Source: an uncultured Gemmatimonadales bacterium (GTDB lineage: Bacteria > Gemmatimonadota > Gemmatimonadetes > Gemmatimonadales > Gemmatimonadaceae). From it: 64,000 nucleotides of DNA. The translations under genes were made by a program, and so were the position numbers. Each line of letters begins with the position of its first letter. Within the stretch, counting starts at the first letter, position 1. Below the pieces are notes generated by a model. That model did not search any database and was not told where the DNA came from. It was given only the letters and a program-made list of their open reading frames with translations. The DNA lies in the NCBI GenBank assembly GCA_963850905.1, contig CAWKMU010000004.1, positions 576,001-640,000 on the forward strand, given 5' to 3'. Below, piece by piece: positions 13,325 through 51,678 of the stretch.

Positions 13325-13565
13325 GGAGTCACCGGTCTTTCGTCGAGGGGCATCTGGCGACGAGCCATTGCGGCTCGCGCAAGGATACGGATTGCCGAGA
13401 CCGCCCATGACGCGGCGCCAGCGGCTCGGCCTCGGTGGTCAGCTCGTGAGGATCATCGCTAGGAAGTCGCTCACGAGAAGACTAGTTCCCGCCCAAGCTC
13501 CGTGTCTCCTTTGTCCTTTCTCCATCGCTCCTCTCTAATTTTGGCCGCCGTGCGGCCACAAATCC

Positions 13566-22089: not shown

Positions 22090-22122
22090 GCACCCGCGCG
22101 GGCACACACCAGTCGATCCTTT

Positions 22123-22536
22123 CTATTTGTGGCCGCCGTGCGGCCACAAATAGGCGGTCGGCCCACGCGCTGGCGGACCCACCGCTTGAAGTTCCTGCCA
22201 CTCTGCATCCTCGAAGAGGCGCGACCGTGTCAGGAACCGCACCCCCTCCGGCGCCTCGAGTGAGAACCCACTCCCGCGACCGGGTACGAGATCGACGGTC
22301 AGGTGGGTGTGCTGCCAGTATTCGTATTGTTGTGCGCCGATGTAGAACGGTGCCCCAGCAACGGCGCCAAGAAACACGTCTCGCTCGCCAATTCGAAACT
22401 CGCGCGACGGGTAGCACATTGGCGAGCTGCCGTCACAACAGCCCCCGCTTTGGTGGAACACCAGATCGCCATGCTGGGCGGCCAGCTGCCGCACCATGGC
22501 GGCAGCTGCATCAGTGATGTCGACACGTTGACTCAT
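22123..22536 (-). CDS. DUF779-family protein
   Basis: FHQSGGCCDGSSPMCY, GRGSGFSLEAPEG; typical position downstream of aldehyde dehydrogenase. Confidence 0.9.
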   Translation of the reverse strand: MSQRVDITDAAAAMVRQLAAQHGDLVFHQSGGCCDGSSPMCYPSREFRIGERDVFLGAVAGAPFYIGAQQYEYWQHTHLTVDLVPGRGSGFSLEAPEGVRFLTRSRLFEDAEWQELQAVGPPARGPTAYLWPHGGHK

Positions 22537-32528: not shown

Positions 32529-32756
32529 TCACGTGTCGGCCAGCGCCGACACAATGTACGCGGCAACGCTGACGCCGGTGGCGATGAGTGCGACGGCGAA
32601 CAGTCGGCCCCTTGGCGAAAGCGGATGAGGAGCCTCGAGGCCAACCGTGGAGAGGATCACCGGGGCGTGCCTGTGAGTAATGCCAGGCCCGTGCGGGCCC
32701 TCAACGGTGGCGGCTTTGGGGTGGCAGGCTGTCAGGCGACCGCCGACAACAAGCAA
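32529..32756 (-). pseudogene. Decayed potassium-channel pore fragment
   Basis: ILSTVGLEAPHPLSPRGRLFAVALIATGV resembles TLSTVG(Y/F)GEVHPLS..GRLF; filter motif corrupted, no RCK domain. Confidence 0.5.
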
Positions 32757-32865
32757 TGGACTGCCCTGACAGCGAAGGCTTTCTTGGTTGACGATCTTCC
32801 GTCACGACACCGGCAGGATCGCTTTCCCTCCTCATGACGTCCGTCCGGACGAGGAGAGCACGCAA

Positions 32866-33784
32866 ATGGCCACCGGATATGACGCCTATCCCAGACCACC
32901 GCACGCGACAGCGGCTCCAACGCGCGCGAAGGGCTGGCCGATCGTTGTGGGCACCTGTGGCACCCGGGACTCAAACGGGGCAATCCGTCTCGCGCACCTC
33001 TTGGTGCAACGGAGATGCGAGGGCGGTGTACGTTGTCGGAGTGCTCGACACTGACTGGCAAAGCACGTATGGGACGGGTGAGGGTAGCGAACCCTATGAC
33101 CCCCGGACGGCGGAGGCATTGCTCGCTCGCATCGAGCGTCAGCTCGTCGAGCTCGGGGTACCGGCAGGACACTGGCCGGTCGGCATCGTCGGGGGCGAAC
33201 GCGCTGGCGCGCTGGGGGACATCGCAGGCAACGACCGCACATCGCTCCTTCTGGTTGGCCTGAAGAGTCACATCGCGCTGGCAAGGCTCTGGGGGCGGTC
33301 GACCGCACTCGGTGCAGCGAGCAAGGGCAGGCGCACCGTCCTCGCCGTCGATCCGCTGGCCAGAGCGTTGCCGACGTGCGCGGTGGTGGGCACCACCTTC
33401 GGCCCGGCCAGTGAGAACGCTGCTCGAGCCGCACTCGACTGCCTTGGGTCGTCAGGATCGCTGCACTTGGTGCATGTCCGACCCTTCATGTCCCAAATTG
33501 GAGTGGGGGCGCTATCGACCGACGTGGCGTACGCGCAGGAGATTGCCGACCGCTTGGGGAGCATGGTCTCGGCGCTCGGAGCACCACCTGGCGTCCGGGT
33601 GCGATGTCACGATGTGAGCGGCGACCCAGCGAGCCGCCTGCTCGAACTCGCACAGCAAGAGCACGCCGACCTCATCGCCGTTGGCACGCACGACCGTCCC
33701 GCCTTTGGTGCGTTCCTCGTCGGCACTGTTGCCTCACGTGTGCTTGGGGTCCATCGAACGTCCGTCCTGGTCGCCTCCGCGTGA
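32866..33784 (+). CDS. Tandem universal stress protein (frameshift near 33013)
   Basis: N-terminus PIVVGTCGTRDSNGAIRLA in one frame, the rest (ADLIAVGTH...GTVASRVL) in another; GAGGAG RBS. Confidence 0.8.
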
Positions 33785-33870
33785 TGGCAGCGTACCGTTC
33801 TTGCGTACGTGGCGTTGACCCAGGCGATCGAACTCCTGCTCATCCGCCGACACTGGATTGCGTAGGAACG

Positions 33871-34323
33871 CTATGATCCCGACGTCGCTTCTCGCCCGGT
33901 GACCTCGTCCAGATGCATGCGAAGCACGAGGAGCCGAAACGGTGCAGGATCGTTCGCCGTGCCCGTGCCGGGTACGAGCTCGCGGAGGAGTTCAACACCA
34001 TGGGCGAAGGAATGTTGATCGATCGGCGGCGAATCCGAGTCGAGGAAATATACGGCGCCGTGCACGACCACACTTCGCCAGTCGAACGTGCCCTTGACCT
34101 CATCGACTTCAAAGGCTGCCCAACAATGATGCGGGAGAATCGCGCTCTTTACTCCGCGCGACGTGCGGCAGTAGATCCAGCCATCGGCGAACACATAGTT
34201 GATCGGCTCAATGTCGACGCGGGCCCCACCGGCGTACGCGATACGCCCCACGTGGTGACGAGCGAGAAGGGCCTCGCATTCGGCACGGGACAAATCTCTG
34301 ATGATCGGTTGAGAGGTCGTCAC
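33871..34323 (-). CDS. Pyridoxamine 5'-phosphate oxidase-like flavin-binding protein
   Basis: LSRAECEALL...VGRIA...PINY...AFEVD...WRSVVVHG...TGR. Confidence 0.85.
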   Translation of the reverse strand: MTTSQPIIRDLSRAECEALLARHHVGRIAYAGGARVDIEPINYVFADGWIYCRTSRGVKSAILPHHCWAAFEVDEVKGTFDWRSVVVHGAVYFLDSDSPPIDQHSFAHGVELLRELVPGTGTANDPAPFRLLVLRMHLDEVTGREATSGS

Positions 34324-34608
34324 AACACCCTGAATGAAGGAGAAAGAATCTAGGATCAGCGGCTTCATAACTATTTTATACCCCCCGGTGCATTCCTTTA
34401 CGTCGATCCACGGTGAGGAATCGTTCACCGCAATGTGATGGTACGCCCTCCCGCATCGACAAAACAGTCGGGGAGGGCCCGTCGCGGCGTCCGGCTTTGC
34501 CTCTCATCAATGCGAGGCGCTCTCGCGAACACGCCTTGAGCGATCGCCGCGTCGGGGCGTGCCTGAGTGCATGTCAGGCAACACCTGATCCCTCGATCGA
34601 GGTTCGGC

Positions 34609-35475
34609 ATGCACACTGCACTCAGTACGCGCCGACCTCACGAGGTGGCGACAACGCTGAGACAGCAGGCGGGATTGCCAGCACGGGCCGCGAGAGGAAA
34701 CAACTCGTTGAGCAGCGAAGCGCAATCAGAGAGTTCACCAGTTGCGGATCGGCCTGAGGCGCCGGTCGCCCCCGGTTATCATGCAGTGATCGGGGCGATG
34801 GACGGCGACGCGCACGGTCCCGGTGCCCTTCGAGTTGCCCAGGCGCTTGTTTCGCGATTCCGCTCAGAAGCTGTAACTTTGCCGTCGACTGCTGTTCCAT
34901 CGGCTGTGGGGCGAAAGGCCGACGGCTGCGGACATGCGATTGTCGTGCTACCAGCCCCTGATGCGGGGTCCCCTGAGCGACCGACCTACACCGATCGCGC
35001 CTGTCGAGTCGCTGTCTCAACGCGACACCCCGTGCTACTCGTCCCGGACGCCACCGGATGGCCCCCACGCCAATGCGTCGCGGCAATGGACTTTGGCCGA
35101 TCGAGCATCGCAGCCGCGCTGGCCGCATTGGAGTTGCTCGAGGCGCCTGCTGAACTCGCGCTCGTGTTTGTGCATCAAGGGGATGAGGAGGCTCGCCAGG
35201 CGGACTTAGTGCCGCGACACGTGCGCCTGCTGTGCGAAGCCCTAATGCGCACGCTTCTGGCTCCGACGGGGATTACCGTAACGTCGGTGATCTTGAAAGG
35301 CGCCGTGCTCCCCGTGCTGTTGCCCTTTGCTCGACGTTACGGGGCCGACCTCCTATCGCTCGGCCGGCACGGACGATCCTCATCTGCGGGGATCGCCGCG
35401 ACGCCCGTCGGGCCCACGGTGCGTGGATTGCTCCAGGGTGCACCGTGCACCGCGCTGATTTCGAGCGCACCCTGA
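34609..35475 (+). CDS. Universal stress protein
   Basis: AAMDFGRSS, ADLLSLGRHG, GPTVRGLLQGAPC. Confidence 0.8.
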   Translation: MHTALSTRRPHEVATTLRQQAGLPARAARGNNSLSSEAQSESSPVADRPEAPVAPGYHAVIGAMDGDAHGPGALRVAQALVSRFRSEAVTLPSTAVPSAVGRKADGCGHAIVVLPAPDAGSPERPTYTDRACRVAVSTRHPVLLVPDATGWPPRQCVAAMDFGRSSIAAALAALELLEAPAELALVFVHQGDEEARQADLVPRHVRLLCEALMRTLLAPTGITVTSVILKGAVLPVLLPFARRYGADLLSLGRHGRSSSAGIAATPVGPTVRGLLQGAPCTALISSAP

Positions 35476-35705: not shown

Positions 35706-38270
35706 ATGGAACCAATGACAACTGACCCGGCCCGCCGATTCAGCGACGAAGGTTCCCGGGAGGCGGCGGAATTGAGCGAGGTGGCGGCGCGCGCCGCGTT
35801 CACGCAGCTGCCGCATCCAATGTACTTGCTATCTCGGGACGGCGTGATTCTCGCGGCGAATCCGGCTGGGCTGCGGTTCGTGGCGAAGGCAGACACGCCA
35901 GTCGTCGGTCAGCGGTTGTGGGACGTCGTGGCGTTGATCGGTCCGCAGGAAGACACGCAATGGTTCCGGCGGGCGATCGACGAGGCGAACGCTGGATCTC
36001 GTACTCCCCTTAGATATGACTTGGATGAGACGGCGCGCGAGCGGACGTCCACGTGGTCGATTCGGCGATTTGAGGGGCCAGAGAGCGGTGGGGTCGCGCT
36101 CATAGCGGAGGCGCGCGACGTCACCGAAGAGCGCCGCGTCGAGATCCAGGGCCGGCTGTTCTCGGATCTCGCACTGGCTCTCGGGCAGACCGACTCTCTC
36201 GAGCTTGCGTTGACCGCAGCACTCCAGACGATGTGCACCGCTGGGGAATGGGCGCTCGGCGAAGCGTGGATGCCGTCGACGCTTGCTGGGGGCGAACAGC
36301 GGTTGACGCGCGCGGCGGTTTGGGCCGTACCCGATCGGCGGCTACAGGGCTTCGTTGCCCAGGGCTCGGGCTTTCGATTCCAAAGAGGAGAAGGGCTGCC
36401 GGGAACGGCCTGGCTGCGACGTGAACCTGTGTGGGCGAACCCGTTGGGCGCCACGCAGGAATTCACGCGTGGTTCTCTGGCTGGCCAAGCAGGGTTGCGC
36501 GCGGCAGTCGCAATCCCGGTGATGGCTCGCGGAGAGGTGGTGGCAGTATTGAGTTGCTATATGGCCGATCTCCGCAATCGCCATACACATCTTGTGCAGG
36601 CCGCCACCGGCGTCGCTGCGCAACTCGGTCCGTTGTTGCTGCAAAAGAAGGCGGAGGAAGCGCATCGCAATGCGGAGGCGCAACTCGCAGGTACGATCGC
36701 TATCGCAACCGACGCGATCATCTCCATCGACGAGACACAGCGAATTACCCTGTTCAACTGGGGGGCCGAGCGCATCTTCGGGTATGCGGCGGACGAAACG
36801 ATCGGGGAGCCGCTCGACATGCTGCTGCCGGAACATCTGCGACGGCACCACGCCACCGACATCGCAGAGTTTGCCAGGTCCGCGCAGACAGCGCGACGCA
36901 TGGGTGAACGGTCAACGATCCTGGGGCGGCGCAAGAACGGCGAGATCTTCCCGGCCGAAGCCTCGATCTCACGCTACATGAGCGGAGGGCAGTGGACCTT
37001 CACCGTGATGTTGCGAGACATCACCGACCGGCGACGCACCGAGGAGGGACTTCGGTTTCTCGCAGAGGTCGGAAGCCTGCTTGGCGATTTGATACAGGAT
37101 CAGACCGTGCTGCAGCGGGTTGCCGAGCGAGCGGTGCCGACGCTGGGTGATGCCTGTGTCATCGATCTGGTTGAGAACGACCTGCCGATCACCGCGGCGG
37201 TCGCCGCACGCGACATTGATATGACCCGCGCGATCCAACGTTTCCGCGATGAGAGGCCGCTGAAGTGGGATGACCGGTCGCCGACAATGGACGCCTTGCG
37301 GACCCGACAGACGCTGCTCCTACCCGAGGGTATTGGAAGCTGGACTGGGCTGGCCGAGCGCCCGGATTATCAACGAGATCTATCGCCGCTTGACGCTGGA
37401 TCGATCCTCGTTGTGCCTCTCGTGGCCCACGACCGGGTAATGGGCGCGCTCAGCCTTGCAATGCAAGCCGGGGGACGCCGCCATGACGATAACTACCGCG
37501 TGCTGGCGGAGGAGGCGGCGGGCCGTATTGCGCTTGCCGTCGACAATGCAATGCTCTATCAGCGGACGCGGCAGGCCGTGGGGGCGCGCGACGAGACGCT
37601 CGCGGTCGTGTCACACGATCTGCGGAATCCGTTGAGCGCGATCAGGATGTACATGAGTGCGCTCCGGGAGGATCCTCCGCCGAGTCCTGAGAGCGTGCGG
37701 GAGCTCGTGGAGCTCGTGCAGGAATCGACGTTGCTCATGTCGCGCATCATCGAAGATCTGCTCGACGTCGCGAGCATCGACAGCGGCCGATTGTCGCTCG
37801 ACCGAAAGGTGCAGCCGCTTCAGCCCTTGCTGGAGCAAATCGAAGACATGTTTCGTGGGGCTGCCGACGAACGGGGGATCGCGCTCGTGCTCGAGCGCAG
37901 TGCGCTCGAACGACTCCCCACGCTGGATGTGGATCGAGACCGCATCGTGCAGGTGCTCGGCAATCTGGTCAACAACGCGCTCAAGTTTACAGAAGCCGGT
38001 GGGATCGTAACCATTAGCGTCGCAACGCGTGGTGAGATGGTCACGGTGGCAGTAACTGACACCGGCGTCGGGATTGCTCCCGACGATCTCGCGCATGTCT
38101 TCGACCGGTTCTGGCACGGTCGCCGCCGAACCAAGATCCGCTCTACCGGGCTGGGTTTGGCGATCGCACGCGGCATCGTGCAGGCACACGGTGGTCGCAT
38201 CTCAGTCGAAAGCACGGTGGGTCGTGGCAGTACGTTTGCCGTCGAGCTGCCGGCCGCCCCAGAGCGCTAG
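35706..38270 (+). CDS. PAS-GAF-PAS-GAF sensor histidine kinase (second PAS FixL-like)
   Basis: LLPEHLRRHH...GRRKNGEIFP PAS; SHDLRNPL H-box; NLVNNALKF, DTGVGI, GLGL. Confidence 0.9.
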   Translation: MEPMTTDPARRFSDEGSREAAELSEVAARAAFTQLPHPMYLLSRDGVILAANPAGLRFVAKADTPVVGQRLWDVVALIGPQEDTQWFRRAIDEANAGSRTPLRYDLDETARERTSTWSIRRFEGPESGGVALIAEARDVTEERRVEIQGRLFSDLALALGQTDSLELALTAALQTMCTAGEWALGEAWMPSTLAGGEQRLTRAAVWAVPDRRLQGFVAQGSGFRFQRGEGLPGTAWLRREPVWANPLGATQEFTRGSLAGQAGLRAAVAIPVMARGEVVAVLSCYMADLRNRHTHLVQAATGVAAQLGPLLLQKKAEEAHRNAEAQLAGTIAIATDAIISIDETQRITLFNWGAERIFGYAADETIGEPLDMLLPEHLRRHHATDIAEFARSAQTARRMGERSTILGRRKNGEIFPAEASISRYMSGGQWTFTVMLRDITDRRRTEEGLRFLAEVGSLLGDLIQDQTVLQRVAERAVPTLGDACVIDLVENDLPITAAVAARDIDMTRAIQRFRDERPLKWDDRSPTMDALRTRQTLLLPEGIGSWTGLAERPDYQRDLSPLDAGSILVVPLVAHDRVMGALSLAMQAGGRRHDDNYRVLAEEAAGRIALAVDNAMLYQRTRQAVGARDETLAVVSHDLRNPLSAIRMYMSALREDPPPSPESVRELVELVQESTLLMSRIIEDLLDVASIDSGRLSLDRKVQPLQPLLEQIEDMFRGAADERGIALVLERSALERLPTLDVDRDRIVQVLGNLVNNALKFTEAGGIVTISVATRGEMVTVAVTDTGVGIAPDDLAHVFDRFWHGRRRTKIRSTGLGLAIARGIVQAHGGRISVESTVGRGSTFAVELPAAPER

Positions 38271-38359
38271 GACAACAGCCGGGGTTCTTTGGGTACTACC
38301 CCGCGCGCAAGGCGGCGCACTTCGATCCCATCGAGGCGTTGAGGTTTGAGTAAGAGGCG

Positions 38360-38422
38360 GCTAGAGACAAACCTCGAGGCCAGCTGGACGCACCGCGGCT
38401 GGCTTCGAGGTTTGTCTCCAGC
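38360..38422. terminator. Long inverted repeat between convergent genes (likely bidirectional terminator)
   Basis: GAGACAAACCTCGAGGCCAGC ... GCTGGCTTCGAGGTTTGTCTC. Confidence 0.65.
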
Positions 38423-38446
38423 GTCCAGCGTCTAGCGTCTAGCCCT

Positions 38447-39109
38447 TCACACCTCTGTCAGCAGATTCAACCGCACCGCCAGCTTGACGTAATCGGCCCG
38501 ATGATTGAGCCCAAGCTTCTCGTTGATGCGCTGCTTGTAAGTGTCGACCGTCTTCGGGCTGATGGCGAGCTTGGTCCCGATCTCCGGTGCGGTGAATCCC
38601 TGCGCAGTCAATCGGAGCACATCCTGTTCGCGAGCGCTCAAGCCCTCGAACCGCTCGCGATCGGCCTTGGCGGGGTCGCGCCGCGTCAGTCCATGCACGA
38701 GAACGCGCGACGCGGAGTGCTGCACGTAGACGTCGCCGTGCGCGACGGCTCGGATGGCGTCGACGAGCTCGCGGTCGGCGACGCTCTTCAGGAGGTAGCC
38801 TGCAGCGCCGGCCTGCAGAAGTGGCAGGAGGTGCTCTTCCTCCGTGTGCATCGTGAGGATCAACACCCGCGGCCGCGGTCCCTTGGCGACAATGACTTTC
38901 GTCGCCTGAAGCCCGTCGCCGTCAGGCATGTCCAAGTCCATCACCACCACATCCGGGTCGCAGCGCTCGGCCATCATCACCGCCTGCGTGCCCGTTGCCG
39001 CCTCGCCGACAATGACCATGTCTTTGGCTCCGCCGACCACAGCCTTGAGGCCGCTTCGGACGACGCTGTGATCGTCAGCCAGCATCACTCGAATCACCGC
39101 ATCGTGCAT
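38447..39109 (-). CDS. NarL/FixJ-family response regulator (REC + LuxR HTH)
   Basis: LADDH, VMDLDMP, YLLK, LSAREQDVL...ISPKTVDTY. Confidence 0.95.
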   Translation of the reverse strand: MHDAVIRVMLADDHSVVRSGLKAVVGGAKDMVIVGEAATGTQAVMMAERCDPDVVVMDLDMPDGDGLQATKVIVAKGPRPRVLILTMHTEEEHLLPLLQAGAAGYLLKSVADRELVDAIRAVAHGDVYVQHSASRVLVHGLTRRDPAKADRERFEGLSAREQDVLRLTAQGFTAPEIGTKLAISPKTVDTYKQRINEKLGLNHRADYVKLAVRLNLLTEV

Positions 39110-39361
39110 CGTGTCTCCATCGTTGGTTTCACGCTCCCAGAATCTTGTCCTTGGAGGAGGCGGCCTCGTATCGGGGATCACGCTCGGCTTGTGTAGGGTA
39201 AGTCCTGACAAGCGACGTGCAAGTGCAGCCAGTGGTTCTGTGACGTCAGGTAGCTCCTTACAAGTAATGACTCCGGGCCTGACGGCGGTGCGCCTCCCGA
39301 ATTCGCATTTTCAGCTGCCCTGCGATGCAGGCCAATCGAAGTCCCCAAGTCGAGGCGCGCA

Positions 39362-40219
39362 ATGAGCGGAATCCTTCTCGCAAGCGACGGTGGACCAGGC
39401 GCGGACGGTGCGACGCGGGTCGCGGCAGACCTGGCCAAACGGCTGGGCGCTCCGCTCACAGTCCTCGCCGTCTACGAGCCAATGCCAGTAGCAGACTTTG
39501 GCTACGGCGTGGCCTACATCCCAACGACCGACGAAGACAACGCCATCCGAAAAGAGTTGCGCGAGTGTCTCGCGGCGCAACTCGAGCGATGTCGAGTCGA
39601 CGGCTGCGTTCCCGACGTTCGTACCGGCCCCGCGGTCGTGATGATTCCTGCGACTGCCCGCGCGCTCCAGGCCGACTTGATCGTGACGGGACTGGGAGCA
39701 CATGACTTCCTGGATCGCGCTTTCGGTGGTGAGACGGCGCTCCGGCTGGCGCAGACGGCTACGACGCCCATCCTCGCGATCCCCGCGACGGCCACCGCCG
39801 CACCACATCGTGTAATTGTGGCCACGGACGTGAGCGCGACCAGCCGGCGGGCGGCTGCAGTTGTGTCTCAATGGTTGCGCTCGGGTGACGAGCTCCAGCT
39901 CGTGTACGTCGCCGACGAAGGGATCGAGCCCGAGCCGAGACCGACTGCCAAGATTAACTCGGCCATCGCGGAGAAGCTCGCCCAGATGGCGAGCGAGCTA
40001 CATCCCGCGGGCGCCGCAACCGTCAAGACCGTGGGGCTCTCTGGCAACCCCGCTCGCTCATTGCTCTCCTTTGCAAAGGAGATCGACGCTGATCTCATCG
40101 CATTGGGAAGCCATGGTTACGGGCCTATCAAGCGCCTGCTGCTCGGGAGCGTGGCCTCAAAGGTGATCAGATTGGCGACGACTGGCGTGCTGGTCGTGCC
40201 CGCCGGAGCGGTGCAGTAG
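39362..40219 (+). CDS. Tandem universal stress protein
   Basis: ILLASDG, ADLIVTG, ADLIALGSHG...LLGSVASKVIR. Confidence 0.9.
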   Translation: MSGILLASDGGPGADGATRVAADLAKRLGAPLTVLAVYEPMPVADFGYGVAYIPTTDEDNAIRKELRECLAAQLERCRVDGCVPDVRTGPAVVMIPATARALQADLIVTGLGAHDFLDRAFGGETALRLAQTATTPILAIPATATAAPHRVIVATDVSATSRRAAAVVSQWLRSGDELQLVYVADEGIEPEPRPTAKINSAIAEKLAQMASELHPAGAATVKTVGLSGNPARSLLSFAKEIDADLIALGSHGYGPIKRLLLGSVASKVIRLATTGVLVVPAGAVQ

Positions 40220-40226
40220 CAGGGCG

Positions 40227-42716
40227 TCAGGCGGTCCACGTCCACTCGGCGATCTCTGGTGCGTCGTTGAAGTGCTCACGCGTACAACGCACGGCGTCCG
40301 CAATCAGCCGGTCGCACTCAGCCATGAGCTCAGTGGCCCGCGTACGCGGAACCGGGGCGTGCTGCAGCGCGAGCGCCGCGAGATGGTAGCGACTCATGCC
40401 GTTGAGCACGACCATGTCGAAGGGTGTCGTCGTCGCCCCCTGCTCGACGAAGCCACGCACATGAAATCGAGCCGGATCGGGGCGACCGTGGACGAGCTGG
40501 TGGATGGCACGCTGATATCCATGGTAGGCAAAGATGACGGGCCTGTCCCGCGTGAACAGCTCCACGAACTGTTCCTCGCTCATGCCATGCGGGTGGACAT
40601 CCGGCGGAAAGAGCGACATGAGGTCGACGACGTTCACGACGCGCACAGCAAGATCCGGTACGCGCTGTCGCAGCCAGTGTGCAGCCGCCACGGTTTCGAG
40701 CGTGGGGGTGTCCCCGGCGCAGGCCAGCACGACATCAGGTTGAGCGCCTGGACGAGTTGGGCCCTCAGTGCCAGCCCACGCCCAGATGCCGGCACCGCGT
40801 CGCGCGTGCTCGATCGCGTCCCCCATGGACAGCCACTGCAACTGCGGTTGCTTGTCGATGACGATGAGATTGACGTAGTTGCATGATCGAAAGCAGTGGT
40901 CCGCGACAGACAGCAGCGTGTTGGCATCGGGCGGCAGGTAGATCCGCGCGACCGTGCCACGCTTCGACAACATGACGTCAATGAGACCGGGACCCTGGTG
41001 GCTGAACCCGTTGTGGTCGTTCCGCCAACAGGTAGACGTCAGGAGGATGTTGAGCGACGGGACGGGAGCACGCCACGGAAGTGTGATCGCGTGCTCCAGC
41101 CACTTCGTGTGTTGCACGGTCATCGACGCCGAGACCATCGCAAACGACTCATAGGTCACGAACAGGCCGTGCCGGCCGGTGAGCGTGTAGCCCTCGAGCC
41201 ACCCTTCGCAGAGGTGCTCGCTCAATACCTCCATGACTCGACCATCGGCTGTGACATGATCGTCAATGGGGATGAGGTGAGCGTCGAGGCAGCGATTCTC
41301 GACGTCGAAGACACTTCCCAACCGGTTCGAGTTCGTCTCGTCGGGACACGTGAGGCGGAAGTTCGCCGCGGGGGCGTTCCGCACGAACATGTCGCGCACC
41401 ATGTCTCCGAGTTGACGCGTCGATTCGCGCCGGACGGTCGCCGGTCGTGGAACGTCGATCGCGTACGTGCGGAAGTCGGGGAGATCGAGCGGTTGTACGA
41501 GCTTGCCGCCATTCGCGTGAGGGTTCGCGCCCATCCGTCGGTCGCCTGTCGGCGAAAGGGCGGCGAGCTCGGGAGCCAGTGCACCGGTCTCCGTGAAGAG
41601 CGACTCCGGCTCGTAACTTCGCATCCACTCTTCCAGCGACCGTAGCTGCGCTGGATCGGTCTGCACGGCCGGGAGGGGGACCTGATGCGCACGGAATGTC
41701 CCCGCGACTGGGTGGCCGTCAACCACAGCCGGACCGGTCCACCCTTTCGGCGTGCGCAAAATGATGGCGGGCCACGTCACTGTCCCGCTGCTCGAGCGGC
41801 CTTTCCCTGCGCGCGCCTCTGCCTGGATGCGCCGAATGCGCGCATAACAGGTGTCGAGGGTCGTAGCGAGTTGCTGATGGATTGTAGCCGGCTCGTCACC
41901 CGCGACCACGTGCACCTCGTAGCCGTGACTCTCGAGCAGCTGCGTGACCGCGGCATCGTCGACCCGGGCCAGAACAGTCGGGCCGCTGATTTTGTAGCCG
42001 TTGAGATGCAGGATGGGGAGAACCGCACCGTCTCGCGCAGGATTGAGGAAGCGAGTGCTTTTCCACGCGCCCTCCAGCGGTGCGGTCTCCGCCTCGCCGT
42101 CGCCAACGACGGCTGCAACGATGAGGTCAGGATTGTCGAATGCGGCGCCAAAGGCATGCGCCAGGACATAGCCAAGCTCGCCGCCCTCGTGAATCGACCC
42201 CGGCGTCGTGACGCTCACGTGACTCGGGATGCCACCCGGTGTGGAGAACTGGCGGAACAACTGGCGAAGTCCCGCAACGTCGCGCGACACGCCGGGATAG
42301 ATCTCCGAGTATGTCCCCTCGAGATACACATTGGCGACGATTGCCGGGCCACCGTGCCCCGGTCCCGCGAGATAAATGACACTTGCCTCGTGCTCGCGAA
42401 TCAGGCGATTGAGGTGAACATAAATCAGGCTCAGTCCAGGTGATGTCCCCCAGTGACCGAGCAGGCGGGGCTTGATGTGCTCGGGCCGAAGCGGTTCACG
42501 GAGAAGCGGGTTGTCCTGGAGGAAGATCTGGCCGACAGTCAAATAGTTGGCCGCCTGCCAATATCGTTGCATCCGTTTCAGGAGCTCCGCTCCGAGCGGC
42601 TTTGAGGGCGTGGCGGGTACTGGTTGCTGCGAGCCGGCGCCCTGCGTGGAGGACGATGGCACGACGCTCGAAACCGACGGGTCGAACACGAAAGCAGGGG
42701 TCTCAGTTCGCATCAC
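40227..42716 (-). CDS. xfp: Phosphoketolase (xylulose-5-P/fructose-6-P)
   Basis: KPRLLGHWGT, GPGHG, HEGGELGY, GDGEAET, LHLNGYKI, DHNGFSHQ. Confidence 0.95.
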   Translation of the reverse strand: MMRTETPAFVFDPSVSSVVPSSSTQGAGSQQPVPATPSKPLGAELLKRMQRYWQAANYLTVGQIFLQDNPLLREPLRPEHIKPRLLGHWGTSPGLSLIYVHLNRLIREHEASVIYLAGPGHGGPAIVANVYLEGTYSEIYPGVSRDVAGLRQLFRQFSTPGGIPSHVSVTTPGSIHEGGELGYVLAHAFGAAFDNPDLIVAAVVGDGEAETAPLEGAWKSTRFLNPARDGAVLPILHLNGYKISGPTVLARVDDAAVTQLLESHGYEVHVVAGDEPATIHQQLATTLDTCYARIRRIQAEARAGKGRSSSGTVTWPAIILRTPKGWTGPAVVDGHPVAGTFRAHQVPLPAVQTDPAQLRSLEEWMRSYEPESLFTETGALAPELAALSPTGDRRMGANPHANGGKLVQPLDLPDFRTYAIDVPRPATVRRESTRQLGDMVRDMFVRNAPAANFRLTCPDETNSNRLGSVFDVENRCLDAHLIPIDDHVTADGRVMEVLSEHLCEGWLEGYTLTGRHGLFVTYESFAMVSASMTVQHTKWLEHAITLPWRAPVPSLNILLTSTCWRNDHNGFSHQGPGLIDVMLSKRGTVARIYLPPDANTLLSVADHCFRSCNYVNLIVIDKQPQLQWLSMGDAIEHARRGAGIWAWAGTEGPTRPGAQPDVVLACAGDTPTLETVAAAHWLRQRVPDLAVRVVNVVDLMSLFPPDVHPHGMSEEQFVELFTRDRPVIFAYHGYQRAIHQLVHGRPDPARFHVRGFVEQGATTTPFDMVVLNGMSRYHLAALALQHAPVPRTRATELMAECDRLIADAVRCTREHFNDAPEIAEWTWTA

Positions 42717-43888
42717 ACTGCCCTCCCTGCTCGAGTAATGACCGGAGATGTCGCGCGATCATGAGCTCCTCGTTGGCCGGTACGATCCGGACCGTGACAC
42801 CTGAGTTTATTCCCGAAATGATGGCTGCGTGCTTGGTATTCAGACCCGCATCGAGCGAGACGCCACACCACGACAGGTGCTCACAGACGCGGTCGCGCAC
42901 AACGGCCGCGTGCTCGCCGATTCCGCCGGTGAAGACCAGCGCGTCGATTCCGCCCAGCGCCGTACCAAGGGCGGCAATGGCTTTGGCGACCTGGTAGCAG
43001 AAAATATCGACCGCTTCCGACGCTCGTGCGTCGGTCGGAGAGCGATCAAGCAGAGTCCGCATGTCTCCGGTCGTGCCTGAGAGGCCACGCAACCCGCCTT
43101 CGTCGTTCACGACGCGACTCAGCGCCTCTATGTCGAGTCTTTCGGTTCGAGCGAGGTAAAGCAGCACGCCGGGGTCCAGGTCGCCTGAGCGGGTCGCCAT
43201 GACGATGCCGCCGGTTGGCGTGAACCCCATGGTCGTATCGATGCTTCGGCCGTCACGTATGGCAGCGACGCTTGCTCCACTGCCGAGGTGGGCCGCCACG
43301 AGCCGCAGGGGCAAGGCGCCTGCATGCCCGCAGCTCCTCCACGATGTACTCGTACGACAGGCCGTGAAACCCGAAGCGTACCACTCCTGCATCCGTGAAT
43401 CGGCGGGGCAGCCCGAAGAGCCGTGCACGGTCAGGCAAGGTTGCATGAAACGCCGTGTCAAAGGATGCCGCAGGGCGCACGCTTGGCCATCGCGTGACGA
43501 CCTGTTGCACCGCATCGAGCTCGATCGGCAGATGATCAGGGGCAAGCGGGATGACGCCTCGCAAATCGAGCATCACTGCTGGAGTCAACCACGCCGGGGC
43601 GCGATAGTGGAGCCCACCATGCACGAGTCGATGACCGACCGCCACCAGATGCGGCGCCAACTGCTCCCGCTCGAGCCGAGTGAGCAATTGCTCGATCGCC
43701 GCTCGAGGGGTAGCTGCCTCGGTCGGCTCATCGCGTTGCACATCTGCGGACAAGGAGAGGCTTGCGACCATCCGCTCCTGCGGCTTCGTCACCGCGGCCG
43801 CGAACAGGCGACGCTCCGCACCACCGCCGACGTCGAACACCGCCGATTTCACGCTCGAGGAACCGACGTTCAGGGCGAGGACGAGCAT
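42703..43888 (-). CDS. ackA: Acetate/propionate kinase (frameshift near 43326)
   Basis: LNVGSSSVK, GHRLVHGG, FDTAFH, FGFHGLSY in one frame; HLGSGAS, TMGFTP, TRSGDLDP, FTGGIGE, NEELMIA in another. Confidence 0.9.
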
Positions 43889-44051: not shown

Positions 44052-44540
44052 CTAAAGGCTCGACGGGGCCACCACACATCCCGGCGTCCCGCTGTGCGCA
44101 TCCGTGACGCGGACTTCGCTGCGCATTCCGTGCGCGCCCTCCACGCACTCGAGCGCTCGCTCGACAGCCGCGTATTCGGCCGTCGTCGCAACGGTGCCGG
44201 TCAGGATCAACCACCCCTTCTCGACGCGAATGATCACGTCGCGGCCGATCGGATGCTCCCCGGTCGTCAATGCGTCGAGGGCGCGGTGGGCCAGCCCTTC
44301 GTCATCGGTCGCGTTGCCGTGACCGTTAGCGACCTGCAATGTGACGACAACTGCATGGGCGCCAGGCTCGCGTTGCATCGCCCGTTCCGCGGCAACCTTG
44401 TCGTCTGGCGTGTCGACCACGCCACTGAGCGTCACTACGCCGTCCTGCACATTGACGGTGACCTTCGACGCCGCTGGACCAAGTGTGGTCCGCAGCGCGC
44501 CTGACACGGCCGCATGGAGGTTCAAATCTGTTCGCATCAC
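44052..44540 (-). CDS. Dual BON-domain protein
   Basis: VNVQDGVVTLSGVV and VEKGWLILTGTV...VEGAHG. Confidence 0.85.
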   Translation of the reverse strand: MMRTDLNLHAAVSGALRTTLGPAASKVTVNVQDGVVTLSGVVDTPDDKVAAERAMQREPGAHAVVVTLQVANGHGNATDDEGLAHRALDALTTGEHPIGRDVIIRVEKGWLILTGTVATTAEYAAVERALECVEGAHGMRSEVRVTDAHSGTPGCVVAPSSL

Positions 44541-44575: not shown

Positions 44576-44971
44576 CTACGGCTTGGCCTTACCGTGACCG
44601 ACGGCCCAGACATAGGCCGCGACCTTCTTGACATCATCGTCGCTGATACCACCTGGATGACTGACCATGGCGGTCCCGGACACTCCGTTCGTCACGACCC
44701 CGACGATCGCCTCATATGTGCCACCCTTCGCATCCTTCCAGTCGTGCGCCATCAACGTCGGTGCGATCGGCGTGCCCTCGAGATTCGAGCCGTGACAGGT
44801 GATGCAGCTGCCCTGCCCGTGGAAGACCTTACGTCCGGCATCGATGGCGGCGGGCGAGGCCGAATCAGCCGAAGAGCCGGTCTGCGCGTTCGCGGGTTGC
44901 AGCGCTGCAAGCAAACAAATGGCATTCGCAGCGCAGGTAATGAATGCGAGTCGCAGCATGGCCCTAAGCAT
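44576..44971 (-). CDS. Periplasmic monoheme cytochrome c
   Basis: Signal peptide, CITCH, distal Met (TAM). Confidence 0.9.
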   Translation of the reverse strand: MLRAMLRLAFITCAANAICLLAALQPANAQTGSSADSASPAAIDAGRKVFHGQGSCITCHGSNLEGTPIAPTLMAHDWKDAKGGTYEAIVGVVTNGVSGTAMVSHPGGISDDDVKKVAAYVWAVGHGKAKP

Positions 44972-45322
44972 TGGGTCTCCAGGTCAATGGTGAACGGCGA
45001 TCTAGGTGGTACACGGGTCGTTGACGACACGTAAACCTAGGCAGCGCCTCCAAAAACGAGCATCAGGGAAAATCCGCCCGGACGTCAGGCAATCCGCCGG
45101 CGACACGCATGGTCGCTGTAGGGGAATCCATTACACGGGCGGCGGCATTTACCGGATTGAGCAACTCGGCGGCCTGAGGCAGCTTGGCGGCGTAGCACCG
45201 GAATGCTCGCGCCGTTGCGGGCCACAACTCAACTCACGCCGGAGTTTGCGGTGGTTCCTCACAAGTCCAAACTGCGAAGACGGGTTCCGAGTTCCTGGCT
45301 CCCGATGCCGGGAAATACAACT

Positions 45323-46828
45323 ATGAAGAACGAATCAGGCCGAGGACGAGCCGCAGGGGTGCTGCGACGCGCGCTCGCCGCCGCGATCGTGCTGATGTTG
45401 GTGGCCAATGCGGCGGTTGCCGTCGCAAGCGCGCCAAATGCCGGCAACAACGACGATAGAGGTAACGAGGACGCCAGGGGGAAGGAGGACCCCGCGATCG
45501 CCGGTTCCGCGGCTCGTCGAGTGGTGATGCCCTCTGGGATGCACGAGCTGCTCGCCTCGCTCCACAGGAAGGTGCCGGCGTTTTCGCGTCAGACCGGTCT
45601 CGCATGTTCCGCGTGCCACTACCAATTCCCGCAACTGACGCCATTCGGACGCTCGTTCAAGCTGAACGGGTATACGCTGACTGGGCTCAAGCCGATCACT
45701 GAGCCGAATGCGAAAAAGGGGGCGGCACTCTCGCTGCTACCGATCCCGCCAGTCGCCGTCATGCTCATGGCCTCAGGCTCGCACTTGGGTGATGCCCGTC
45801 CGGGTGCGCAGAACGATGTCGCGGAAATGCCGCAGCAATTGAGCCTCTTTCTCGCGGGCTCGCTGACGCCGCATATCGGCGCGTTGCTGCAAGCGACGTA
45901 TTCCGGGAGTGGAGGTTCGTTCGGCATCGACAACAGCGACGTCCGGTACGTGACGCGTGCGCGCCTCGCGGACAAAGATGCGATCTTCGGCCTGACGCTG
46001 CACAACAATCCAACGGTCCAGGACGTGTGGAACACCACACCTGCCTGGGGCTATCCTTTCATTAGCTCCAATGTGCCACCCGGAACGATTGCGGCGCCGG
46101 TCATCAGCGGGCAGCTGGCGCAGCAAGTGCTCGGGTTTGGCGGATACGGACTCTGGAACAACCTCGTCTACGTTGAGGCCACGGCGTACCGAAGCGCACT
46201 GCAGGGCATCTCGCCTGCTGACTCGACCGCGGCCAACACGATCCAAGGAGTGACGCCATATTGGCGTCTCGCTCTCGAGCATCAATTCGGGCCGACGTAC
46301 GGCATGATCGGCGTCTATGGCCTGGTCAGTCATCTCTACCCGACTGGCGTCACGGGGCTGACGAATCGCTTCACCAATGCCGCGGTCGACGCGCAACTCG
46401 AGCATACCTTCGGTGCTGCTGGCGTCGTCATTGGTCGCGCGACCTGGATCAACGAGAGTCAGGTCTTGAGTCCGCTCTTCGCCTCGGGCGCCGCAAGCCA
46501 GGTCGACAACACGCTCAACACAGGGCAGGTCAACGTCAGCGTAGAACCCAACGCGCGCTACGGGGTGACGCTGGGGTACTTCTCCACGACCGGCACGCGC
46601 GATTCACTGCTCTACGCGCCCGCCCCGCTGGTCGGGAGCCGAGTGGGATCACCGCAAACGAACGGCTTCATCGAGGAGCTGGACTACAATCCGTGGCAGA
46701 ACATCCGCATCGGTCTGCAGGGGGTGCAGTACTCGAAGTTCAACGGTGCGGCAACCAACTACGACGGAGCAGAACGAGCGGCAACGGGGAACAACACGGT
46801 CTACGTGTTTGCATGGGTGGCGTTCTGA
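45323..46828 (+). CDS. cyc2: Cyc2-like fused monoheme cytochrome c / outer-membrane beta-barrel
   Basis: VPAFSRQTGLACSACHYQFPQLTPFGRSFKLNGY signature, NNPTVQDVWN, C-terminal WVAF. Confidence 0.8.
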   Translation: MKNESGRGRAAGVLRRALAAAIVLMLVANAAVAVASAPNAGNNDDRGNEDARGKEDPAIAGSAARRVVMPSGMHELLASLHRKVPAFSRQTGLACSACHYQFPQLTPFGRSFKLNGYTLTGLKPITEPNAKKGAALSLLPIPPVAVMLMASGSHLGDARPGAQNDVAEMPQQLSLFLAGSLTPHIGALLQATYSGSGGSFGIDNSDVRYVTRARLADKDAIFGLTLHNNPTVQDVWNTTPAWGYPFISSNVPPGTIAAPVISGQLAQQVLGFGGYGLWNNLVYVEATAYRSALQGISPADSTAANTIQGVTPYWRLALEHQFGPTYGMIGVYGLVSHLYPTGVTGLTNRFTNAAVDAQLEHTFGAAGVVIGRATWINESQVLSPLFASGAASQVDNTLNTGQVNVSVEPNARYGVTLGYFSTTGTRDSLLYAPAPLVGSRVGSPQTNGFIEELDYNPWQNIRIGLQGVQYSKFNGAATNYDGAERAATGNNTVYVFAWVAF

Positions 46829-46914
46829 TGAAACCGGAACGGCGGGATCGGGGGCCGCGGGCGCTTTGCGCCCCAGAAAGGAGAAACGCAGAAAGTAGAG
46901 AGGAGACATTGACC

Positions 46915-47661
46915 ATGTCAGAAGAGACACATCAGGCTGTGCATCCGCCGTCGGGATCGTCCGTCCACGAGGCGGCGAGTGAGCGGCGCGCATTTCTTCA
47001 GCGCGTGACCGGCGTGGCGGCCGCGCTGGCCGTTGCGCCGTTGGTGCGTCATCCATTCGCCAGCGTCGGATCGGGGCCGGCTCCCGCGGTGACATTGCCC
47101 ACCGGGCTGCAACCTCGTGCGCCGTGGAGTGACGCCTGGTTGCAGAAGCTGACGGGCAAGCACAAACAGTTCTTCGATACGCTGCAGCCCAATGATGGAT
47201 TCTCGCTGGCGTTCGCGATGTACTTTCTCGATCTCAACCACGAAGCGTACGGGCTCACGGACAATCAGCTCACTGCTGTAGTCGGTCTTCGGCACTTCGC
47301 GATGCCCATGGCGCTTCCGGATGCGCTCTGGGAGCGCTATCGCATCGGTGAGAACATGCAGATCAGCGACCGCACGACCGGCGGGCCCGCAACACGGAAC
47401 CCATTCCTGCACCGAGACGGCGTACCGACCCCTGGGGCGGATGTTACGACGTTGATGCAGCGTGGCGTCCTCTTCACAGTCTGTAACGTCGCGCTCACGA
47501 TCCTGAGTGCGCGGATGGCTAGCGCGGCTGGCGTATCAGGGGAGGCAGCGAAGGCCGAGTGGACGAAGAGCATCGTCCCAGGCATGATCCTGGTGCCGGT
47601 CGGTGTCATGGCGGTGAATCTGGCCCAAGAACGCGGGTGCACCTATTGTTACGGAGGGTGA
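46915..47661 (+). CDS. Tat-exported DsrE-like protein
   Basis: SERRAFL twin-arginine motif; GVLFTVCNVAL...VPVGVMAVNLAQERGCTY DsrE-like core; alternative start at 46828. Confidence 0.7.
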   Translation: MSEETHQAVHPPSGSSVHEAASERRAFLQRVTGVAAALAVAPLVRHPFASVGSGPAPAVTLPTGLQPRAPWSDAWLQKLTGKHKQFFDTLQPNDGFSLAFAMYFLDLNHEAYGLTDNQLTAVVGLRHFAMPMALPDALWERYRIGENMQISDRTTGGPATRNPFLHRDGVPTPGADVTTLMQRGVLFTVCNVALTILSARMASAAGVSGEAAKAEWTKSIVPGMILVPVGVMAVNLAQERGCTYCYGG

Positions 47662-47827: not shown

Positions 47828-48049
47828 ATGCGGCGACCGAAAGTCGGTTCGCTCGTCCTCATCACCGTATTCGCTGTGGGGCTCGTCATCGGGAGTTCCG
47901 AGCACTTCTTTGTCACGGGTCCTAACAACGTGTTCGACGTGGGCACCGGCGACTGGACGGTCCCGTTCAAAATCAGTGTTGCGATGCTTGTCTTGCTCGA
48001 GGTTGCGGGCCTGTCGGCCGCTGGACGCGTGCTGACCACGCGCTCATGA
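47828..48049 (+). CDS. Small two-TM membrane protein
   Basis: AAGGAG upstream; two hydrophobic segments. Confidence 0.5.
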   Translation: MRRPKVGSLVLITVFAVGLVIGSSEHFFVTGPNNVFDVGTGDWTVPFKISVAMLVLLEVAGLSAAGRVLTTRS

Positions 48050-49457: not shown

Positions 49458-50189
49458 TCACCCGCCACCTCTCGCGATCGCCATATACAGGCCAAGCCCG
49501 ATCAGCAGGAGCGCGATCACGCGTCGGAACATGCGTTGGGGGAGATGCCCTAGCAGGCGGGTGCCGAGCGAGGTGCCGATCACCACGCCGAGCGTCGCTG
49601 CGAGGAGCAGCGGCCACACGTGGGCGATGGCGCGCGCTTCCGTGGCCAGATACACCGGCAACCGCGCCACATCGACAAAAAGCCCGATCGCCGTGGCGGT
49701 CGCGACGAACGACTCCTTTGGCACGTCGAAGCCGAGCATCGCCGCCGAGCGTATACCACCTTGATTGCCGACCAGACCTCCGAACGTCCCGGAGAGCAAT
49801 CCCGCGAACCATGCTGTTCGCCGCCCCCAGTGAACTCGCTCGACCCACCCCGTGAGCTGTGATGTACCAGCGAAGATGAGCAAGCAACCAAAGACAACGG
49901 CCAGCCCGCGGCTCGAGATCCGTGTGTGCAGGAGTGCGCCGGCGAGCCCGCCGACCGCGCTCGCGATGCCGAATCCGAGGAGGACGCGTCGATCGACATG
50001 GCGTCGCAGCAGCCAGAATCGTTGCGCGGTACCGACGAAATGCGGGAATGCGACCGCGGCTACCGCGAGCTTCGTCCCGGTTGTGAGCGCCAGAACCGGG
50101 GTGAGCAGGCTCCCAATGCCGAAGCCAGTGACGGCAGCAATGCCGCCAGCAACAATCGCAGTCAGCGCGAGCAGTGCGCCGAATAGCAC
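49458..50189 (-). CDS. TauE/SafE-family sulfite exporter
   Basis: GFGIGSLLTP, FGGLVGNQGG, ~8 TM segments. Confidence 0.8.
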   Translation of the reverse strand: MLFGALLALTAIVAGGIAAVTGFGIGSLLTPVLALTTGTKLAVAAVAFPHFVGTAQRFWLLRRHVDRRVLLGFGIASAVGGLAGALLHTRISSRGLAVVFGCLLIFAGTSQLTGWVERVHWGRRTAWFAGLLSGTFGGLVGNQGGIRSAAMLGFDVPKESFVATATAIGLFVDVARLPVYLATEARAIAHVWPLLLAATLGVVIGTSLGTRLLGHLPQRMFRRVIALLLIGLGLYMAIARGGG

Positions 50190-50560: not shown

Positions 50561-50908
50561 ATGTCACCGGTCACCCTGCAGCAGACCTTGCCGCTGTATC
50601 AAGCCCGCTGCTCACTGGTGCGCGCCATCAGGCGCGCGCACATTGGGCGCGGATACGACGCATTCCTGCTCCGAGTCGCCGTGTCGGAATTCACTGAGAG
50701 GCTCCGCCAGGCTCGGATCCCACTGAATCGTACGCTCACCGCGCTCACCGATGCGATCGATGACGGTCTGCTCAGTGGCGGAGGAGAAGCGCTGCGCGCG
50801 ACCATGCTCGATCGTGCAACGTCGTGGGCGACGGAGGTATACGTCGATTGCGCGTCTCGGGCGCGATGCAATACGTGGCCCGCGGGGGTTGGCCTGCTAG
50901 CATCCTAG
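50561..50908 (+). CDS. Hypothetical protein
   Basis: GAGGAGG RBS, helical ORF. Confidence 0.55.
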   Translation: MSPVTLQQTLPLYQARCSLVRAIRRAHIGRGYDAFLLRVAVSEFTERLRQARIPLNRTLTALTDAIDDGLLSGGGEALRATMLDRATSWATEVYVDCASRARCNTWPAGVGLLAS

Positions 50909-51189: not shown

Positions 51190-51678
51190 ATGAGCAAACG
51201 GCGCGAGGTACGCTGCTACGACTACGTGAACCATCCGTACGATCGCGTCAGCAGTGCTTTGAGACAGGACGCCCTCAGCGTTTTCCGGTCAGCTACGAAG
51301 GCCGCGGCTGCCCGTGCGCAATCAGTAGCTGCCGAATTGCACGTCGACATTGGCGGCGTGGGGGTGAAGACGGATATAAACATTGCTGTGCAGAGCGTCC
51401 AAGAGACGATTGATGCAACCTCGGGTCCCACCACGCGTTTGATTCTCGAGTGGGAAGCCACAACGACGCCGCGGCTGTTCCCGCTGATGAGGGGCGAGCT
51501 TGCGATCTACCCGCTGACACGGACGGAAACGCAGTTGGATTTCTCGGGGATGTACGAACCGCCGTTCGGAGCCTTGGGAAAGACTCTAGACGCAATTGCC
51601 GGCCATCGCATCGCCGAGGTGTCGGTTCATCGCTTCATTGACGACGTGGCCGCGTATCTCCGACAGACCCTCGTGTAA
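51190..51678 (+). CDS. Hypothetical protein, SRPBCC/START-like fold suspected
   Basis: LFPLMRGEL...GMYEPPFGALG...HRIAE. Confidence 0.65.
   Translation: MSKRREVRCYDYVNHPYDRVSSALRQDALSVFRSATKAAAARAQSVAAELHVDIGGVGVKTDINIAVQSVQETIDATSGPTTRLILEWEATTTPRLFPLMRGELAIYPLTRTETQLDFSGMYEPPFGALGKTLDAIAGHRIAEVSVHRFIDDVAAYLRQTLV

Follow-up and report, generated by a model that had tools for sequence, protein, structure and literature searches.

A Cyc2-family porin-cytochrome under a shared 19-bp promoter box: a candidate low-oxygen electron conduit in Gemmatimonadota

The gene cyc2 is used as a marker for iron oxidation, and its role in the many hosts that are not known to oxidise iron is called an open question in the accessible text of two reports (PMC8406198, PMC5566968). 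Published criteria for the Cyc2 family comprise the motif AXPXFAR[Q/K][T/Y] upstream of a CxxCH heme site, PXL downstream of it, a signal peptide, a length above 365 aa and a 16-strand barrel (PMC8406198). The proven oxidase of Acidithiobacillus ferrooxidans shares its operon with coxBACD (PMC10654088), and Cyc2B of the same species rises in anaerobic Fe(III) reduction, according to the available portions of PMC7735108 and PMC8790237. Cyc2 homologs in Gemmatimonadota have already been published, in a report whose accessible text calls the direction of electron flow undecidable from annotation (PMC11316326). Here we describe a Cyc2-family gene, its divergent cytochrome c gene and the putative regulon around them in a 64,000-nucleotide stretch, hereafter the window, from an uncultured Gemmatimonadales bacterium (GCA_963850905.1, contig CAWKMU010000004.1, positions 576,001 to 640,000). 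The host genome (G000) comprises 4.49 Mb in 6 contigs and is 82% complete; its closest relatives, by proteins and by genomes, are Gemmatimonadaceae, and the stretch is matched in soil metagenome runs, with no RNA dataset among those listed. The protein family at this locus is known, but its regulatory and genomic surroundings appear to be undescribed: literature searches, in which subscription journals are largely missing, turned up neither the box nor the regulator nor the island.

Inspection of the protein encoded at 45323-46828 places it in the Cyc2 family with near certainty. A hydrophobic helix at residues 8-34, read here as a presumptive signal peptide, is followed by a linker (36-83), a heme segment (84-105) and a 16-strand barrel (about 144-501) that closes on a C-terminal Phe. 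The heme motif reads CSACH and is the single CxxCH within 501 aa. The AlphaFold2 model, built from 62 homologs, contains 16 barrel strands across residues 144-500 with a predicted TM-score (pTM) of 0.70, and residues 83-129 around the heme fall below a pLDDT of 50. The porins OmpT, Omp32 and DcaP are the top Foldseek matches of this model, and Porin_O_P is the nearest Atlas cluster with a Pfam assignment; sequence searches of Pfam, NCBIfam and PDB gave no match. The PAFSRQT...CxxCH...PQL N-terminus, the barrel ending in Phe and the Cyc2 identity put forward in an initial annotation of this DNA are all borne out. That annotation had also singled out a charged linker of about 45 aa. The linker is present, with strong charge confined to its first ~20 residues, and its length is common among homologs: at least 57 residues precede the motif in 33 of the 77 with a called start (from a rough gene caller), which leads us to reject the linker as a peculiarity of this protein.

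Compared through the published motif definition, the protein shares with A. ferrooxidans Cyc2, Mariprofundus Cyc2 PV-1 and Leptospirillum Cyt572 (PMC8406198, in its available text) a signal peptide, the PXF-R-Q-T motif, a single N-terminal CxxCH, PXL, a 16-strand barrel, a length above 365 aa and a periplasmic carrier gene nearby. It differs in one motif substitution, Ser for the second Ala, which is common to most of its subfamily, as well as in its long N-terminal linker and heterotroph-type host, and in that no cox or rus operon accompanies it and a regulator box precedes it within a stress/fermentation island. Met147 is a candidate for the distal heme ligand. The family is represented by at least 2,274 matches among 8,000 scored candidates, with 4,065 representatives at 50% identity. 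In a tree of 210 sequences, calculated without characterised Cyc2 references, the protein falls among 67 tips, mainly from Gemmatimonadota, that form a clade with support 1.0; the enclosing 89-tip clade (support 1.0) also takes in loci of Bacteroidota, Ignavibacteria and Kryptoniota. Named homologs at 32-40% identity, among the matches listed, come from Burkholderiales, Acidiphilium and Methylocystis, and these relatives hint at Cyc2 cluster 2.

To the putative regulon belongs a 19-bp palindrome that was read at the promoters of universal stress protein (USP) genes and of the regulator as TGT(A/C)RGG-N5-CCY(T/G)ACA. The genome was scanned with a matrix trained on four of these USP/NarL sites only (Table 1), with the Cyc2 site left out. 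Although blind to it, the matrix finds the box at 45117-45135 with 15.0 bits, which corresponds to a genome-wide frequency of 5e-6 or 0.002 expected per region, and it finds the box before Cyc2 in other genomes. The proposed tie of Cyc2 to the USP/NarL regulon is thereby upheld; of the several palindrome copies claimed for the Cyc2 intergenic region, one is strong, and the next sites, of 5.0 and 2.8 bits, are no better than chance, which predicts 0.26 and 0.69 such sites per region. Intergenic boxes of at least 13 bits number 4 in the 694 kb of the main contig C3, 6 on contig C2, 5 on C5, where one of them is a paralogue of a training site, and 6 on C4, which include the four training sites themselves. 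A box of at least 12 bits stands upstream of Cyc2 homologs at 8 of 59 high-GC loci, where simulation gives a mean of 0.67 and a maximum of 2, and at 1 of 16 low-GC loci; this fuller pass supersedes an earlier one (10 of 55 homologs versus 2 of 55 coding controls). The box lies directly upstream of Cyc2 in G020 and G011, which represent other genera, and upstream of a multiheme-barrel cluster in G036. We hold with high confidence that the box exceeds chance and is common to USP, regulator, hydrogenase, multiheme and oxidase promoters.

A window-wide count of the pattern (8 versus 2.35) is circular and was not used as evidence. General consensus patterns of FNR, CRP, Rex and NarL had no match in the window, and a DosR-like pattern occurs there only at 28092. 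De novo discovery of 4-mer dyads upstream of 55 homologs gave nothing convincing, the box is not among the families shown by a repeat search of the window, and a scan for sigma-70 promoters and terminators remained at chance level. The Cyc2 intergenic region of G006 did not align with that of the window.

The candidate binder of the box is the NarL/GacA-family response regulator at 38447-39109. Of 36 family genomes (G016 counted as one row), 26 encode a close ortholog; the recognition helix is nearly invariant, and 4 of 27 ortholog genes have the box in front of them versus 0.18 expected. Binding of the box by this protein is fairly probable. The best NCBIfam models of the regulator are MctR and then UvrY/GacA (155 bits versus a cut-off of 280), all below cut-off. 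The half-site resembles that of the Gac box bound by GacA/UvrY (TGTAAG-N6-CTTACA; PMC11837529, in its accessible text), and UvrY/GacA is the second-best model; in contrast, the spacer of the present box is longer by one base, the targets here are protein-coding genes rather than Rsm sRNAs, and the regulator falls short of the 280-bit cut-off. The described regulons of DosR/DevR in Mycobacterium and OsdR in Streptomyces (PMC5069765, as far as its available text goes) share with this locus a NarL-family regulator, palindromic boxes before the regulator itself and before USP-type genes, and clustered USP, PNPOx-like, PPDK, nitroreductase and heat-shock genes. The USP, BON, PNPOx-like, HSP20 and PPDK-like genes found here are gene classes of those regulons. 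Unlike them, the present system has a different box consensus (OsdR: AGGGCCGATCGGCCCT), a diderm host and a HisKA-type kinase, and its island adds outer-membrane electron conduits. Neither the DosR/OsdR box sequence nor DosR orthology was found, the regulator scoring below all NCBIfam cut-offs. Judged from gene content, low oxygen is quite probably the cue.

The reach of the box is best seen in the sister genome G004, which belongs to the same genus and encodes a 94% identical Cyc2. Thirteen intergenic boxes of at least 11 bits lie there between 3,322 and 3,430 kb, with none in the 35 kb before or the 15 kb after. A contiguous stretch of ~105 kb surrounding Cyc2 encodes a group 1 NiFe hydrogenase together with its maturation proteins, a multiheme-barrel cluster, Rieske and cytochrome b-c proteins, and a B-family oxidase that carries the HPxVY motif. 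Also encoded there are PFK, PEP synthase, malic enzyme, Xfp-AckA, a V-type ATPase, HSP20, BON and USP proteins and the regulator; some of these names are our own reading of the sequences. The multiheme-barrel cluster encodes, in order, an 8-heme protein, a 17-heme protein, a 491-aa barrel-like protein and a 16-heme protein, followed by Rieske, cytochrome b-c and monoheme c; it is divergent from the hydrogenase, with a box in between (G000 C2:29565-39813, L142; G004:C1:3337479-3346953, L155). The 491-aa protein has no Pfam match and has homologs in 30 of 61 relatives. The 8/17/16-heme and barrel cluster has the appearance of a Gemmatimonadota porin-cytochrome conduit that has yet to be named.

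In G000 most of these extra genes are located on C2 (49 kb) and C5 (42 kb). C2 begins at the 3' end of the gene downstream of Cyc2, C5 ends at the 3' end of the regulator, and the genes they share with the window are 81-97% identical. These contigs are probably the longer island arms of a second strain that was binned with G000, and the window's own island would therefore be without hydrogenase, multiheme cluster and B-family oxidase. Two further observations concern the island itself. The heme-copper oxidase of the B family (ba3-like), preceded by a box, is found in G000 at C5:39689-41912, with subunit I in several frames, and intact in G004 at L157:2752-4972. The V/A-type ATPase operon of G004 (C1:3406127-3413776, L158) has the strongest box (23 bits) nearby and no close match in the gene calls of G000. 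Within the window, the split of AckA into two frames is likely a long-read assembly error because G004 has an uninterrupted gene for 394 aa and near-identical contigs from short reads have one base fewer over this stretch.

Neighbourhoods were counted over the best 80 of at least 588 confirmed Cyc2-homolog loci, which are kin to each other and in many cases cut at contig ends; their genes were called with our own rough script and clustered, and the baseline consists of random genes on contig C3 alone. Inspection of these loci reveals a near-constant carrier: 71 of 80 have a gene for a heme-c protein or a cupredoxin no more than 2 kb from Cyc2 (heme 50, cupredoxin 22), as opposed to 3.9% for random C3 genes. 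The family of the window's cytochrome c (44576-44971) recurs in 38 of the 80, in either orientation. This cytochrome, a divergent periplasmic monoheme protein as initially described, with CxxCH and a signal-like N-terminus, is very probably the redox partner of Cyc2. Stress-class genes lie near 15 of the 80 homologs versus a baseline of 0.6%. Among seven records of plasmid homologs in Proteobacteria, two of them near-identical, USP, BON, PNPOx-like, Crp/Fnr or anaerobic genes adjoin in six and a c-type cytochrome gene in all seven. Other arrangements at the Cyc2 loci include two Cyc2 copies in tandem, in the order Cyc2, cytochrome c, Cyc2, in four Gemmatimonadota loci (L083, L092, L095, L123). 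A DUF6789 membrane protein (14 of 80) or DoxX (8 of 80) stands beside Cyc2 and cytochrome c, as in L069, L074, L079, L084, L091, L100, L101, L109, L111 and L116.

Tentatively, and with a little less than even confidence, we read Cyc2 and cytochrome c as a conduit carrying electrons outward. The two proteins would form a minimal outer-membrane electron conduit, which the NarL/GacA-family regulator would switch on through the 19-bp box at low oxygen. Quinol may then give its electrons to a Rieske/cytochrome b or ACIII complex, from which they would reach cytochrome c and finally a soluble outside acceptor, e.g., chelated Fe(III), such that the conduit could serve as an electron sink beside Xfp-AckA fermentation. 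This electron outlet is favoured over Fe(II) uptake because quinol-oxidising complexes lie near 12 of the 80 loci (Rieske/cytochrome b 6, ACIII-like 6), a count reduced from 15 once two short members with a cytochrome only and an isolated Rieske had been set aside, and terminal oxidase subunits (A- or B-type, bd) lie within 5 kb of Cyc2 in 0 of 80, with cbb3 looked for only by a sequence motif. The island in the window likewise holds no oxidase subunit, and no operon of the rus type (cyc2 with coxBACD and rusticyanin) was found there or within 5 kb at the 80 loci. In G004 the uptake hydrogenase and the 8/17/16-heme and barrel cluster appear to be co-regulated through the shared box, and fermentation genes appear to be co-regulated as well; both are consistent with export. 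RuBisCO was not found in the 82% complete genome.

The heterotroph Acidiphilium cryptum JF-5, which reduces Fe(III), carries homologs of 38% identity on its plasmids, where genes for anaerobic ribonucleotide reductase and U32 ubiquinone genes adjoin them. A. ferrooxidans Cyc2B-Cyc1B and the Acetobacteraceae Cyc2 homologs (PMC7735108, in its accessible text; PMC10715153) resemble the present pair in combining a stand-alone porin-cytochrome with a small cytochrome c, and these systems are tied to anaerobic growth, with Fe(III) reduction proposed; the likeness extends to the Acidiphilium plasmid homolog with its anaerobic neighbours. They differ in that their hosts are acidophiles and no shared box has been shown for them. 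Separately, a cassette of a Cyc2-like gene, cytochrome c, U32/SCP2 ubiquinone genes, pdxST and anaerobic ribonucleotide reductase is shared by Acidithiobacillus and Acidiphilium plasmids (L133, L137). Bacteroidota/Kryptoniota loci (L105, L107, L112, L114, L115) present the order kinase/regulator, Cyc2, cytochrome c and ACIII-like operon, and Ignavibacteria-type loci (L113, L125, L130) have Rieske/cytochrome b in place of the ACIII-like genes.

Several observations weigh against an outlet under this regulon. With respect to the box, 51 of the 59 high-GC homolog loci score below 12 bits, no box lies near Cyc2 in G026, G021, G038 or G053, one change leaves the G004 counterpart of the 45117 box with 9.8 bits only, and only 4 of the 27 regulator orthologs are preceded by a box. 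Hydrogenase, multiheme and oxidase genes, moreover, lie outside the window's own island. A His/Met heme is likely too high in potential for humics or ferrihydrite, and the boxed B-family O2 reductase of the G004 island, with its His-Tyr motif, would be a ready sink for inward electrons. Three characterised representatives of the Cyc2 clusters oxidise Fe(II) (PMC8406198, in its available text; also PMC13692758), ACIII and bc1 accompany Cyc2 in the Mariprofundus oxidation model (PMC5566968), and the single periplasm-side heme of Cyc2 is described as out of reach of solids (PMC8406198).

Much of this also speaks for micro-oxic uptake, the main idea of the initial annotation and a rather unlikely alternative by our estimate, in which Cyc2 would oxidise dissolved Fe(II) and cytochrome c or a cupredoxin would pass the electrons to a high-affinity oxidase, with Fe(II), like H2, providing maintenance energy under the same regulon. 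To the family precedent, the ACIII of the oxidation model and the limited reach of a single heme, this alternative can add the B-family oxidase and hydrogenase of the same boxed G004 island, the resemblance of the cytochrome c partner to CcoP/c6 domains, cupredoxin neighbours in 22 of 80 loci that recall rusticyanin, the conserved Met147, and caa3 and bd oxidases on C3. Terminal oxidases are nevertheless missing within 5 kb at all 80 loci, and no characterised iron oxidiser occurs among the named matches listed. Hosts of the subject homologs include Bacteroidales, Lentimicrobiaceae and Prolixibacteraceae genomes, groups that are mostly fermentative.

The same neighbourhoods bear on whether the protein is respiratory in the first place. 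A heme-gated pore, whether it serves to sense or detoxify a small redox-active solute or to keep periplasmic redox in balance during dormancy, and in either case without iron as a substrate, would explain a patchy spread (full-length or partial Cyc2 matches in 4 of 9 congeners) and plasmid-borne copies beside transposases, and many Cyc2 hosts are not known for iron metabolism according to the accessible text of PMC5566968. We consider such a role improbable, as the near-constant carrier gene and the recurrent quinol-complex neighbours argue for a respiratory chain.

The gene that follows Cyc2 encodes a protein with a twin-arginine translocation (Tat) signal. A conserved three-gene module and a sulfur-linked function through this DsrE-like partner had both been suggested, and neither survives the comparison of loci. 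The gene does follow directly, its start at 46915 lying 86 nt past the Cyc2 stop, and its DsrE-like character shows, at weak significance, in the modelled fold and not in Pfam, where no DsrE match was found at E 0.01. Foldseek ranks DsrE-like MTH1491 and ST0148 as the best folds (E 2.6e-3 and 3.4e-3, weak; TM-target 0.70), and four of the top five rows are DsrE-like structures, at a best E of only 2.6e-3. Cys190 is invariant in 28 aligned rows, and JGI annotation gives DsrE/DsrF for many homologs. With Acidithiobacillus Tsd (AFE_0042) and the DsrE-MTH1491 fold the protein shares a mass of ~25 kDa, export, a weak profile match, a tentatively DsrE-like fold and a conserved Cys; in contrast to Tsd, it reaches 31.2 bits with model NF052225 versus a curated cut-off of 300, and no doxDA or rhodanese cluster lies beside its gene.

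These likenesses, together with the adjacency of Tat gene and Cyc2 in G000, G001, G004 and G006, are what a sulfur module could draw on, in which the Tat protein would oxidise thiosulfate like Tsd and hand electrons to cytochrome c, and Cyc2 would be the pore of entry. Among the nearest homologs of Cyc2 and of the Tat protein, seven lie on contigs of equal length, an indirect hint at this narrow linkage. Across the 80 loci, however, the Tat gene lies near Cyc2 in only 2, TauE in 0 and SulP in 2. In a separate set of 20 stretches from relatives (3 of the same genus, 17 of other genera), which may overlap with the 80, the Tat gene stands directly behind Cyc2 in G001, G004 and G006, all of the same genus, and in 0 of the 17 others. 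Four Tat paralogs lie elsewhere in G000 in unrelated contexts, none adjoining redox genes in the gene calls. TauE (49458-50189) and SulP (51990-53651) are indeed present, as had been remarked, at 1.8 and 4.3 kb beyond the Tat gene. Because of these counts and contexts, neither the trio nor the sulfur module is supported; the score of the Tat protein is a tenth of the Tsd cut-off, horse cytochrome c is not reduced by Tsd (PMC6335251), and we regard a sulfur module as very improbable. The Tat DsrE-fold gene is better described as a passenger fixed in this genus than as a conserved partner of Cyc2.

In its fullest form, the outward reading would have Gemmatimonadota own a DosR-like low-oxygen regulon whose undescribed 19-bp box turns on Cyc2, a multiheme-barrel complex and an uptake hydrogenase, with this Cyc2 subfamily, shared with Bacteroidota and soil Proteobacteria, as electron outlet; as one combined statement, this is doubtful. 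Were electrons to flow outward, a large share of the cyc2 "iron-oxidation markers" in soil would mark hypoxic electron export, counts of iron oxidisers would be inflated, and an abundant soil phylum would possess an unrecognised anaerobic electron sink. Were they to flow inward, Gemmatimonadota would scavenge Fe(II) and H2 to survive hypoxia. For either direction, the shared box and the named candidate regulator offer handles on the system, namely low oxygen as the probable condition, a partner protein, and a regulon of which our searches found no description.

Table 1. Positions of the Cyc2 locus, the promoter boxes and neighbouring genes in the window.
Feature	Position	Strand	Basis or remark
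Cyc2-family fused monoheme cytochrome-porin, 501 aa	45323..46828	+	motif, AlphaFold2 model, Foldseek
Cyc2 signature and heme site: VPAFSRQT, CxxCH (C95, C98, H99), PQL	45572..45637	+	invariant in alignment and in 210 homologs
Met147, candidate distal heme ligand	45761..45763	+	Met in 178/210 homologs
19-bp palindromic box TGTAGGG-N5-CATTACA between divergent Cyc2 and cytochrome c genes	45117..45135	.	15.0 bits
Periplasmic monoheme class I cytochrome c (c6/CcoP-like), likely redox partner	44576..44971	-	CxxCH, signal-like N-terminus; homolog in 38/80 loci
Double BON-domain protein, directly downstream of cytochrome c	44052..44540	-	
Tat-signal DsrE-fold protein, distant relative of Acidithiobacillus Tsd	46915..47661	+	weak NF052225 match, Foldseek, invariant Cys190
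NarL/GacA-family response regulator, candidate box binder	38447..39109	-	
PAS-GAF histidine kinase, possible sensor, candidate only	35706..38270	+	
Two boxes between regulator and USP, training sites (39192-39210, 39244-39262)	39192..39262	.	both kept in G004
Box between PNPOx-like gene and USP, training site	34572..34590	.	
Box before USP 32834-33784, training site	32730..32748	.	
Tandem universal stress protein	39362..40219	+	
Phosphoketolase Xfp	40227..42716	-	
Acetate kinase (AckA), two frames in window	42703..43888	-	one extra base near 43323
Two further USP genes and PNPOx-like gene	32834..35475	.	

Some smaller features of the window fall outside these groups. A 73-aa membrane-type open reading frame (ORF) at 47828-48049 lies between the Tat gene and TetR, and the family-less ORFs at 50561-50908 and 51190-51678 recur on C2. 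Palindromic or heptamer-like repeats, unrelated to the box, are found at gene ends (13525-13563 and 22113-22153; 38349-38446; 1695-1827).

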